DNA from: Candidatus Methylomirabilota bacterium
GTDB lineage: Bacteria; Methylomirabilota; Methylomirabilia; Rokubacteriales; CSP1-6
Length of the DNA: 64,000 nucleotides
Direction: 5' to 3'
NCBI GenBank assembly: GCA_035315345.1
Contig: DATFYA010000187.1
Location: forward strand, 3,436 to 67,435
Each line of letters begins with the position of its first letter. The stretch's first letter is position 1. The notes beneath the pieces were generated by a model, which saw only the letters and a list, made by a program, of their open reading frames with translations, did no database searches and was not told where the DNA came from. Position numbers and translations under genes: made by a program. Below are positions 62,014 to 64,000 of the stretch, piece after piece.

Positions 62014-62706
62014 ATGGCTATCCCGATCGAGTCCTCACCTCCGCCAGGGTGGGATCGTGAAGGGATCGACGGCCTGCTCGGCCTGTTCCCGCCGGGTCGG
62101 CTCAGCGAGATCGTCGGCCCCCGATCCTCCGGCGGCAGCAGCCTGCTCCTGGCCCTCATTGCCCGGATCACGACTCGCGGGCAGGTGGCCTACGTGGACG
62201 GGATGGATGCGCTCGATCCCGCCTCCGCCGCGACGGCCGGCGTCGATCTCTCCGCGCTGCTCTGGGTGAAGTGTGCAGGCCGTCTCCGCACGGCGCTGAG
62301 CGCCGCCGATCTGCTCGCCCGTTGTCCCGGCTTCTCGCTGATCGTCCTCGACCTCGACGACCTCGGGCCCGTGCCTTTCGCCGCTCAGATCCGGCTGCAG
62401 CGGGCGGTGGAAGACCGCGACGCGGCATTGGTCGTCCATACTGCACGTCATCGCGAGGGCAGCCCCGCCTCGCTGGTCGTGACGACTCGGCGTCTGGCTC
62501 CCCGCTGGAGGGGACTGCGTCCGCTCACCCGTCTCGGTGGGCTTCGCTCCGAGGTCTCCATCGCCCGCTCCCGCCTCCACCCCTCCTCCCTCTCCCCCCT
62601 GGGGAGAGGGCAGGGTGAGGGGGCTGAGGGTGAGGGGGCTGAGGGTGAGGGGGCTGGAGGTGAGAGAGGTGAGGGGCAGACCTGGGCCCTCGACTGGACC
62701 CTATGA
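62014..62706 (+). CDS. imuA: ImuA-like protein (RecA/SulA-fold component of the imuA-imuB-dnaE2 mutagenesis cassette)
   Basis: GRLSEIVGPRSSGGSSLLLALIARITTRGQVAYVDGMDALDP...GVDLSALLWVKCAG...ADLLARCPGFSLIVLDLDD. The C-terminal 45 aa (LSPLGRGQGEGAEGEGAEGEGAGGERGEG) is encoded by REP-A plus 15-bp tandem repeats. Confidence 0.65.
   Translation: MAIPIESSPPPGWDREGIDGLLGLFPPGRLSEIVGPRSSGGSSLLLALIARITTRGQVAYVDGMDALDPASAATAGVDLSALLWVKCAGRLRTALSAADLLARCPGFSLIVLDLDDLGPVPFAAQIRLQRAVEDRDAALVVHTARHREGSPASLVVTTRRLAPRWRGLRPLTRLGGLRSEVSIARSRLHPSSLSPLGRGQGEGAEGEGAEGEGAGGERGEGQTWALDWTL
62581..62677. repeat. REP-A family copy with (GAGGGTGAGGGGGCT)x3 15-bp tandem expansion, inside the imuA 3' coding region
   Basis: CCCTCTCCCCCCTGGGGAGAGGGCAGGGTGAGGGGG followed by three exact 15-mers and a degenerate fourth. 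Confidence 0.75.
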
Positions 62707-64000
62707 CCCGCATCGCCTGTCTGCTCGCCGCGACCGATGCCGAGCCCGATGGGTCCGTTCACCGCATGCTGCTCCAGGTCGCGCTGTCCCATTCGCCCCG
62801 CGTGGAAGACGGCGGCATCGGGCGTGTGTATCTCGACGCGTCGGGATTGCATGGCCTGTTCGGTGACGAGCCCCGGCTCGCCGCACGTCTCCGCGACATG
62901 ACCGCGGCCGCCGGGGTGACGGCACGTGTGGGCATCGCGGGGAGCCGGCTCGCGGCCCTGGCCGCCGCACGCCTGGGGCCCGGCGCCGCCGTCGTCGATC
63001 CGGATGGCGACGCGGCCTACCTGGCCGTCGCGCCGCTCTCCCTGCTCGAGCTGTCGAATGAGCTGTCGGCCCGGCTATCCCGCTGGGGTCTCCGCACGCT
63101 CGGGGAGCTGGCCGCCCTGCCGACCGCGGGGCTGTTCGAGCGGCTGGGAGGAGAAGGGGTGCGGCTGCAGCGGTTGGTGCGCGGCGACGACCCGCGCCCG
63201 CTGGTCTCCTGGAAGCCGGCGCTGCTCTTCGAGGAATCGGTCCAGTGCGAGTGGGGCATGGAGACGCTCCCGCCGGCGGTCGAGCGCCTGGGCGAGCTGG
63301 CCGCGCGAGTGTGCGCGCGCCTCGGCGAGCGCGGGCTCGCGGCCGACGGCTTCGAATGGGCCTGCCGCCTCGACGGCGGCCACCTCCACGAGGGCGCGCT
63401 CGCTCCCGCGGTGCCCATGACCGATGGCGCCGCCGTCGCGGCATTGCTCCGCCTCGCGCTCGAGGCGCGTCCGCCCCGCGGTATCGTCCGGGGCCTCACG
63501 CTTCGTGCCCGTCCCGCGCGGATCACGGCGATGCAGGAATCGCTCACCGATCGCTCCCGCCCCAGTCCGCGCCTCCTCGCGGCCACCCTGAATCGTTTGG
63601 TGGGCCTGGTGGGCGCGGACAGCATAGGCGCTCCGGCGCTGCTCGACAGCCATCGCCCCGACGCCGTGGGCCTGGGCGCCTATGCTCCTCCTCCTTTCTC
63701 TCTCTCTTCCCTCCGGGACGCGGGCGCGGCTTCTCCCTCTCCCCTCCGGGCCGCCGACGCGCCTTCTCGCTCTCCCCTCCGGGACGCGGGCGCGCCTCCT
63801 CCCTCTCCCCTCCGGGGAGAGGGTAGGGTGAGGGGTATCGGCGCCCTCGCCCTGCGCCGTCTCCGTCCGCCGGCTCCGGCCGCGGTCACGCTCACCTCGG
63901 GCCGTCCCGTGGCCTTGCGCTCGAGCCGGCTCAGCGGACGCATCGTGGCCGGTGCCGGCCCGTGGCGCTCCTCGGGCGAGTGGTGGAGCAAGCGGCCGTG
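62703..64000 (+). CDS. imuB: ImuB-like Y-family polymerase homolog (5' part; continues beyond window end)
   Basis: ATGA overlap with the imuA stop. MTRIACLLAATDAEPDGSVHRMLLQVALSHSPRVEDGGIGRVYLDASGLHGLFGDEPRLAARLRDMTAAAGVTARVGIAGSRLAALAAARL... is a DinB/UmuC-like N-terminus. No stop occurs before position 64000. Confidence 0.65.
   Translation, partial: MTRIACLLAATDAEPDGSVHRMLLQVALSHSPRVEDGGIGRVYLDASGLHGLFGDEPRLAARLRDMTAAAGVTARVGIAGSRLAALAAARLGPGAAVVDPDGDAAYLAVAPLSLLELSNELSARLSRWGLRTLGELAALPTAGLFERLGGEGVRLQRLVRGDDPRPLVSWKPALLFEESVQCEWGMETLPPAVERLGELAARVCARLGERGLAADGFEWACRLDGGHLHEGALAPAVPMTDGAAVAALLRLALEARPPRGIVRGLTLRARPARITAMQESLTDRSRPSPRLLAATLNRLVGLVGADSIGAPALLDSHRPDAVGLGAYAPPPFSLSSLRDAGAASPSPLRAADAPSRSPLRDAGAPPPSPLRGEGRVRGIGALALRRLRPPAPAAVTLTSGRPVALRSSRLSGRIVAGAGPWRSSGEWWSKRP
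63684..63836. repeat. REP-A family copy expanded into about 4 tandem 33-bp units (CTTCTCCCTCTCCCCTCCGGGMCGCSGGCGCG) inside the imuB reading frame
   Basis: It encodes in frame SLRDAGAASPSPLRAADAPSRSPLRDAGAPPPSPLRGEGRVRG and ends with the GGGGAGAGGGTAGGGTGAGGGG core. Confidence 0.75.

Follow-up and report, generated by a model that had tools for sequence, protein, structure and literature searches.

The 3' end of a 64,000-nucleotide (nt) stretch of DNA from a soil bacterium, a Candidatus Methylomirabilota (NCBI GenBank assembly GCA_035315345.1, contig DATFYA010000187.1, positions 3,436 to 67,435 of the forward strand; the whole stretch is referred to here as the window) carries tandem repeats inside two adjacent genes, imuA and imuB, whose products would belong to an error-prone DNA synthesis complex, the mutasome. 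This raises the question of whether changes in repeat number switch the mutasome on and off or have some other meaning. Our analysis points toward the latter: the arrays are probably the product of a tolerated, slippage-prone BoxC/triplex element, which yields polymorphism in the length of protein linkers and not a gene switch.

The element common to the two genes can be written as CCCTCTCCCC-NNN-GGGGAGAGGG-YA-GGGTGAGGG: one C-rich block is followed, across a loop of 3 nt, by its G-rich complement, and a further G-rich block comes after a loop of 2 nt. Within the window it is limited to three loci, namely one intergenic inverted doublet, imuA and imuB. An extended 41-nt form, CCTCCTCCCTCTCCCC-NNN-GGGGAGAGGGYAGGGTGAGGGG, occurs at 62582-62622 in imuA, at 63795-63835 in imuB (93% identical to the imuA copy) and between genes at 18560-18600; dinucleotide-shuffled sequence gave no match to this 41-nt form. 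The first loop is of 3 nt; a hairpin pattern with a 4-nt loop found no match. The motif copy in imuA (62588..62621, plus strand; CCCTCTCCCC-CCT-GGGGAGAGGG-CA-GGGTGAGGG, with the common 5' extension from 62582) is read as LSPLGRGQGEG and has a predicted DNA hairpin of -13.3 kcal/mol. The copy in imuB (63801..63834, plus strand; CCCTCTCCCC-TCC-GGGGAGAGGG-TA-GGGTGAGGG) yields SPLRGEGRVRG from the other open frame: two sense frames of the element are open, the third being stopped by a TGA in block 3, and the two genes use different ones. The intergenic doublet lies between plus-strand open reading frames (ORFs) at 17695-18558 and 18670-19392, and pairs a plus-strand half (18566..18599) with a minus-strand half (18625..18659) that has CCG as its second loop.

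Parts of this element recur as tandem arrays, called with Tandem Repeats Finder, in both genes. The imuA array (62612..62675, plus strand; 4.3 copies, 85% matches, score 93) lies in frame and has a 15-bp unit, AGGGTGAGGGGGCTG, equal to motif block 3 plus 5 nt, which includes a G5 run and encodes (GEGAE)n; copies 1-3 (62612-62656) are exact and about 1.3 further copies are degenerate. The array finishes about 30 nt ahead of the imuB start, at a translationally coupled junction (ATGA), and together with the G blocks of the motif it forms the largest G-quadruplex-type motif of the window (8 G-tracts, 62601-62653). The imuB array (63699..63816, plus strand; 3.6 copies, 85% matches, score 180), also in frame, has a 33-bp unit in which TCTCCCTCTCCCCTCCGGG (motif block 1, the loop and the GGG that opens block 2) is joined to a GC-rich spacer of 14 nt, and encodes 11-amino acid (aa) units such as SPSPLRAADAP. 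An earlier note on this DNA had described the imuA 3' end as an element copy plus three exact 15-bp repeats, and imuB as holding about four 33-bp repeats derived from the same core, both preserving the reading frame. This anatomy is borne out in both genes: the array and its (GEGAE)n translation are found in imuA, SLRDAGA/SPLRAADA/SPLRGEGRVRG appears in the translation of imuB, and with units of 15 and 33 bp both translations are intact. The repeats had also been called perfect, which is right for the three exact imuA units but too strong for those of imuB, which are 87-92% alike.

On its sequence, the element is the intrastrand-triplex motif successively named BoxC, PIT and TMECO, and it also matches Table 1 of the study in which the strict pattern was published (Holder et al., 2015; PMC4666352). 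All four window copies show the three-block architecture, with blocks of 9-10 nt, one C-rich and two G-rich. The strict TMECO pattern, CCCTCNCCC-N3-6-GGGNGAGGG-N3-GGGNGAGGG, is fitted among them by 18625-18659 on the minus strand alone; the imuA, imuB and 18566 copies miss it by their 2-nt second loop (CA or TA). When the imuB copy was used as a 42-nt blastn query, all of the 5,426 complete E. coli genomes searched gave matches (median of 13 places per genome; about 37 nt aligned, 89-95% identity), and one of the matches in MG1655 is an inverted doublet between lldD and trmL. The arrays thus derive from a dispersed palindromic element, as the earlier note had it, but its label of repetitive extragenic palindromic (REP) sequence is imprecise: the intergenic doublet resembles REP/REPIN sequences, which RAYT transposases mobilise, in layout only, and the genic copies are not extragenic.

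In E. coli MG1655 the motif has 23 copies, "always located intergenically" and five of them as inverted doublets; a motif oligonucleotide forms a stable intrastrand triplex, although the triplex was not detected in vivo, and the motif has been linked to local rearrangement and deletion and reported for 262 proteobacterial genomes (PMC4666352; earlier work by Bachellier, Hoyne and Maher is cited therein). The element described here shares with these motifs the three-block architecture, a near-identical sequence (CCCTCNCCC, loop, GGGNGAGGG, loop, GGGNGAGGG), a dispersed, multi-copy distribution, the inverted doublets in which a CCG-loop copy is paired with another type (18566-18659 in the window, lldD-trmL in E. 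coli) and an association with local instability. It differs from E. coli BoxC in that two copies form part of the reading frame of conserved genes and have been passed on within a clade, in that the second loop of these genic copies has 2 nt (CA/TA) instead of 3, and in that single blocks have grown into 15-bp and 33-bp arrays; its host phylum, Methylomirabilota, differs as well from the Proteobacteria of the published cases. Later papers dealing with intrastrand triplex motifs within coding sequence were looked for in the literature, and none on the topic was found by title or abstract.

Evidence on the behavior of the arrays comes from close relatives of the window's strain, all of them represented by metagenome assemblies (contigs, not reads). 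Among proteins within the 90% identity clusters of the window's ImuA and ImuB, with flanks 95-100% identical, ImuA occurs with 225 aa (at least 51 contigs), 230 aa (at least 15), 235 aa (6) and 240 aa (1), and ImuB with 431, 442, 453, 464 and 475 aa (about 18 contigs over the five lengths). The lengths step by exactly one unit, that is, 5 aa in ImuA and 11 aa in ImuB. At the DNA level, 20 sequences (the window and 19 loci) show 2, 3, 4 or 5 units in imuA and inserts of 82, 148 or 181 nt in imuB. Copy number had been expected to differ between strains and thereby to alter linker length, and both are observed: it is not uniform, it changes by whole in-frame units between near-identical flanks, and the resulting alleles differ by steps of 5 or 11 residues.

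Moreover, the arrays differ between sequences that are otherwise the same. L058 (4 units, 82 nt) and L066 (5 units, 181 nt) show 0/1,621 substitutions outside the arrays when compared to the window (3 units, 148 nt), and at least three copy-number combinations, together with variants in unit order, are found among sequences with no substitution in these 1,621 nt. L001 and L005 equal the window in array length but have their unit variants arranged in another order, and what distinguishes them from the window lies almost wholly inside the 33-bp array. Array differences in the presence of 1,621 unchanged nt mean that the arrays evolve faster than point mutations accumulate. Steps of 5 aa are likewise found in clusters of other species (225/235/240, 231/236/241 and 433/443/448 aa), and in one ImuB cluster with the element and without an array, 14 of the 15 members listed have 422 aa, the remaining one being a 49-aa fragment. 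Nothing relevant on tandem repeats in either gene turned up in a search of the literature.

Collapse or expansion of repeats during short-read metagenome assembly could in principle mimic such variation, and the fact that every variant comes from assemblies, with the longest imuB insert (181 nt) exceeding the k=141 implied by ENA contig names (k141_...), speaks for it. We nevertheless regard an artefact of this kind as very improbable: that k exceeds the length of the imuA arrays (30-75 nt) and of most imuB inserts, the array units bear distinguishing substitutions, identical alleles recur across independent samples and sources (JGI, ENA, Logan and NCBI; the 225-aa and 230-aa alleles above), and the array-free cluster shows no length variation.

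Rapid change of tandem repeats within coding sequence is what the arrays have in common with classical contingency loci, such as those of Haemophilus, Neisseria and Campylobacter, where gain or loss of units of 1-7 nt shifts the frame and toggles expression. On this ground it had been proposed that slippage turns the mutasome on and off, making it a self-regulating mutator. Besides the hypervariable copy number, this view could draw on the G5 run in the imuA unit, on a short-read contig from another species (L188) with a 1-nt deletion inside the array, and on a few other frameshifted tails. The units of 15 and 33 nt differ, however, from those of contingency loci: they are multiples of three, so whole-unit slippage cannot shift the frame. 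Copy number does outpace point mutation by far, but no OFF allele was found in the focal species, as all of about 74 ImuA and about 18 ImuB contigs are in frame. In L188, the single credible frameshift allele, the deletion falls in a degenerate unit, and the product, in which the conserved C-terminal motif is replaced, ends 5 nt before the imuB ATG; this is an ordinary inactivating mutation and not unit slippage.

A few frameshifted tails were seen among about 120 ImuA cluster representatives, and most of them were discarded as candidate OFF alleles: those of P0138, P0144 and L031 come from contigs of 247-790 kb, where sequencing or assembly error is possible, and those of P0038, P0042 and P0049 are "src"-source sequences with long homopolymer runs, for which the same applies. 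In addition, nothing ties DnaE2 activity to repeat slippage. We therefore give the ON/OFF switch very little credence, given the in-frame units and alleles, and the same evidence leaves nothing that points to a self-regulating mutator.

The location of the arrays in the proteins is consistent with tolerated changes in length. In the AlphaFold model of ImuB, the core (residues 1-272) has predicted local distance difference test (pLDDT) values of 70-93, helices follow at 289-315 and beta strands occupy 414-462, whereas residues 320-405, which include the array (333-378), show no secondary structure and pLDDT values of 25-36. The array thus lies in a connector ahead of the ImuB-C domain that is predicted to be unstructured, and the model agrees with the domain order given in the literature (core, clamp motif, RecA-NT motif, ImuB-C; PMC6511836). 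The C-terminus of ImuA from M. xanthus is predicted to be disordered and regulatory (PMC11002988). Disorder had been suggested for the tails of both proteins; the prediction is favorable for the ImuB segment, while the ImuA model is too poor to judge and therefore offers no argument for a disordered tail.

Could the encoded peptides themselves, (GEGxx)n, SPLRGEGRVRG and the 11-aa units, be functional repeats or short linear motifs under selection on amino acids? The recurrence of LSPLGRGQGEG and of the ensuing GEG periodicity in most orthologues would suit such a role. Yet the two variable residues of the unit differ freely by lineage (AE, LK, LQ, FQ, IN, PK, RQ, AG), the units number between 0 and about 6, some orthologues are without the element, the same DNA gives unrelated peptides in imuA and imuB, and codon usage inside follows the element and not the genome. 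Selection on the peptides is, accordingly, highly unlikely in our view.

The insertions are shared by descent within a clade of Methylomirabilota. In imuA, the element occupies one site, between "...SRxH" and the invariant C-terminal WxLDWTL, in nearly all orthologues with at least about 70% identity (a clade at 69% or more), and more distant Rokubacteria are without it. Between 0 and about 6 units of five residues come after it, with two variable positions that depend on the lineage, and a few lineages inside the clade have partial deletions of the element. In ImuB, the segment between "HRPDA" and "LRRLRP" spans 22-73 residues. Of 115 orthologues, 88 have the element there, often accompanied by 15-bp arrays particular to the lineage (EKTRG, SEVRG, SGVRG and others); in some species, additional copies of opposite orientation or a complete inverted doublet are present. 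A further copy is found in some species just past the imuB stop, at the imuB-dnaE2 junction (L017, L022), and L016 has an exact minus-strand match to the core at this position. Across 336 kb of 47 orthologous loci, 33 of 33 motif matches fall in or beside imuA and imuB, and none in the 4-kb flanks; imuAB is a conserved hot spot of the element. Intact genes without it were found as well (P0078, P0090, P0098, P0110, P0136, imuB of L017, L027 and L028).

Two observations on the provenance of these orthologues were made along the way. Contigs with imuA-imuB clearly of Methylomirabilota type (L012, L014, L016, L020, L021, L027, L043, L046 and L054) are filed in public metagenome-assembled genomes (MAGs) named Nitrosotalea, Acidoferrum, Limnocylindria, Verrucomicrobiia, Dormiibacterota, Binatia and others, which is probably due to mis-binning. 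Also, the 90% cluster of one ImuA representative (P0055) lists 115-aa RidA-family proteins, an odd composition that could stem from gene fusion or mis-calling in the collection.

Within the clade, it is the nucleotide sequence of the element that is conserved. In a codon-aligned comparison, AGA makes up 15 of 18 Arg codons inside the element against 2 of 352 elsewhere in imuA, and GGC makes up 0 of 42 Gly codons inside against 185 of 370 elsewhere; an ungapped between-species comparison of the imuA core (0.57) was spoiled by indels and is not used. Among ten species, mean pairwise identity is 0.91-0.92 for the 34-nt element, 0.87 for the ImuB-C coding region and 0.71 for the third positions of that region. 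Concerted evolution of the imuA and imuB copies was considered and rejected, as identity within genomes (0.90) equals that between genomes (0.90); this, together with the TCA loop common to the imuB copies of five species, indicates vertical descent rather than homogenisation.

These data bear on the idea that the element is kept in imuA and imuB, and in some species at the imuB-dnaE2 junction, as functional DNA or RNA. As a hairpin, triplex or G-quadruplex, it would act in cis to set the relative expression of imuA, imuB and dnaE2, or would couple the operon to replication or supercoiling stress, with the arrays tuning the effect. Conservation of the same nucleotide sequence in two reading frames, the retention of rare codons (AGA, and no GGC), an identity above that of ImuB-C and of its third positions, and the lack of concerted evolution, which points to vertical descent under constraint, all argue for such a function. 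So do the confinement of matches to the operon, the extra junction copies and the minus-strand core of L016, and the position of the window's largest G-quadruplex-type motif just before the imuB start.

The pairing of the stem, on the other hand, is not what changes in the element preserve: no compensatory changes in the hairpin stem were found among orthologues, solely one-sided, pair-breaking ones (L012, L015, L017, L030). Several lineages have lost the element with their genes intact. Template switching (quasi-palindrome correction) can keep the blocks of a palindrome matched without selection, and could thus account for the matched blocks seen here. Furthermore, the E. coli element showed neither promoter nor terminator activity and formed no detectable triplex in vivo (PMC4666352). 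Because the stem changes are uncompensated and several losses have occurred, we rank a functional cis element as a minority possibility, and an unlikely one. The conservation may arise from selection on DNA or RNA or from repair such as quasi-palindrome correction that keeps the blocks matched; either is compatible with our data, which could not separate them. A more specific proposal, which we hold to be quite improbable, is that selection keeps a triplex or G-quadruplex element whose block arrays give heritable, graded differences in mutasome expression or assembly, and hence in damage-induced mutagenesis. Were this true, the locus would be an evolvability module, tunable and not on/off, made from a non-B-DNA motif that itself challenges replication.

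Several observations weigh against a merely tolerated, slippage-prone element. The population data are assembled contigs throughout, and the longest imuB insert is beyond the k-mer length noted above. Mere tolerance leaves unexplained why the element is conserved above the ImuB-C coding region, and why 33 of 33 matches cluster at imuA and imuB with none in the flanks. Finally, the ImuA model, built with 32 close orthologues, is poor throughout (mean pLDDT 42).

Tolerance in flexible linkers is, in turn, in line with what is seen in other genes. A scan of metagenome contigs with the exact motif gave at least 120 stretches, and 80 loci (89 copies) among the matches listed were looked at; the copies are mostly intergenic or at ORF ends, and two of the 89 are imuA copies of relatives. 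Assignments as coding or intergenic by GC content at third codon positions are crude (these two imuA copies were mislabelled "gene end"), and we rely on the Pfam-supported cases L084, L118 and L127. Among the matches listed, there are three such Pfam-confirmed, in-frame copies elsewhere: (i) within the middle domain of an acyl-CoA dehydrogenase, (ii) in a linker of methionyl-tRNA synthetase, before the tRNA-binding domain, and (iii) in an E2 dihydrolipoamide acyltransferase (L127, 8247-9821, minus strand), where the motif occurs in both inter-domain linkers in opposite orientations, one copy being preceded by three 11-aa units (TLSPQGSGAVP) built like the imuB array. That the element enters coding regions where flexible linkers tolerate it, as the earlier note had suggested, is thus seen in the synthetase and E2 linkers, while the dehydrogenase copy lies inside a domain.

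These findings allow us to propose a model for the origin and dynamics of the arrays. An old copy of a motif of about 34 nt (one C-rich and two G-rich blocks) lies in frame in each of imuA and imuB, in parts that would encode flexible connectors: in ImuA between the RecA-like core and WxLDWTL, and in ImuB downstream of the helices next to the core and ahead of the beta-rich ImuB-C domain. Head-to-tail duplication of sub-segments has turned block 3 plus 5 nt into the 15-bp unit, and block 1 plus spacer into the 33-bp unit. The long, near-identical units, which may form hairpins or non-B structures in the cell, would let replication slippage or unequal recombination add or remove whole units often. 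Since unit lengths are multiples of three, change is limited to 5 or 11 residues in a low-complexity linker, and such changes would be neutral or mildly modulatory for mutasome assembly.

Related phenomena are known in other bacteria. Rickettsia palindromic elements, as reportedly described by Ogata and colleagues in 2000, are inserted in frame in protein-coding genes; they are of about 100-150 bp and occupy positions that the protein tolerates. The element studied here is, likewise, a dispersed palindromic repeat lying in frame at tolerated positions of otherwise conserved proteins, but it belongs to an unrelated sequence family, has given rise to hypervariable arrays and is concentrated in one operon; the Rickettsia elements are not known to spawn hypervariable tandem arrays or to concentrate in one operon. 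In-frame bacterial minisatellites (variable-number tandem repeats, VNTRs) occur mostly in surface or secreted proteins, and MIRU-type elements occur at operon gene junctions of mycobacteria. The imu arrays resemble the former in their strain-to-strain, whole-unit length polymorphism in frame, and the latter in the position of the imuA array near a coupled gene junction. Unlike most VNTR proteins, the two proteins that carry them are cytoplasmic and belong, as subunits, to one DNA-damage-tolerance complex; the repeat comes from a triplex motif. BoxC/TMECO elements, in-frame palindromic inserts and coding VNTRs are, then, already known, and what we describe is a variant of them, namely hypervariable minisatellites in two mutasome genes.

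The genes that carry the arrays lie on the plus strand. The imuA-like gene (62014..62706) encodes 230 aa, with the RecA-like core, the in-frame element and array, and the C-terminal WxLDWTL, of which residues D227, W228 and L230 are unchanged in 32 orthologues. Its assignment is based on a partial match to Pfam RecA (45.5 bits) and on operon context, as scores against the curated NCBIfam ImuA/ImuA' models are under the cut-off (NF033429, 30.4 bits against 150; NF058630, 31.5 bits against 65). The imuB gene (62703..64000), cut by the window end after the first 432 of 464 codons, starts with an ATG at 62703 that overlaps the imuA stop as ATGA, and encodes a Y-family polymerase-like core, the array-bearing linker and a beta-rich C-terminal domain. 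ImuB scores 30.3 bits against Pfam IMS (cut-off 23.2), is a Y-family polymerase homologue with a C-terminal extension (core 1-272, beta-rich 414-462), as a mutasome ImuB would be, and matches P0017 / HME97249.1 (JGI name "protein ImuB"), a protein of a Methylomirabilota MAG, with 100% identity. On metagenome contigs with exactly the window's ImuA (L001, L005), the order is imuA, imuB (464 aa) and dnaE2 (1,186 aa), and the dnaE2 product passes the "error-prone DNA polymerase" model NF004225 (1212 bits against a cut-off of 939). By gene order and this curated model, the genes would constitute an ImuA-ImuB-DnaE2 mutasome cassette.

Additional features of this region deserve mention. The dnaE2 gene (L001 9236-12796, beyond the window end; also L059 and L060) contains an intein: the 1,186-aa product of the window's strain type has N- and C-terminal intein splicing domains at residues 732-884 (a mini-intein), and that of a sister strain, of 1,459 aa, has an extra LAGLIDADG homing-endonuclease domain. 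An AT-rich block 5' of imuA (61942..61982, plus strand), with the imperfect palindrome GTATyTT-N7-AArATAC, is kept across species, being common to about 25 of them as GTATyTTGTTGTTGmAAnATACTAAACArGTGAyGTGTAAT, and shows single-nucleotide polymorphisms and a 1-nt indel among near-identical strains. Its appearance is that of a promoter with an operator, which might be a site of LexA type. Scanned against Rfam, 61400-64000 gave sub-threshold matches to miRNA-like hairpins only.

Elsewhere in the window, repeats of other kinds were observed. A 57-bp tandem repeat of a different family (39497-39696, about 3.5 copies, 97% identical) has an inverted copy at 48399-48463, about 8.8 kb off. A 34-nt inverted repeat (20907-20991; 91% complementary, 17-nt loop), one arm of which recurs at 54870-54898, 34 kb off, with 97% complementarity, is, to judge by its letters, another dispersed palindromic family.

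Taken together, our findings place in a distant phylum a class of motifs, BoxC/triplex, so far treated as enigmatic intergenic repeats of Proteobacteria. Here, the element lies in frame in two subunits of one complex, is inherited across a clade and is the source of the fastest-changing sequence of those genes. The arrays provide a set of natural ImuA and ImuB alleles that differ in linker length, in proteins whose architecture is still poorly understood, and a concrete place for asking whether triplex motifs act in vivo. As for annotation, low-complexity tails in such proteins can be remnants of repeat elements and not domains.

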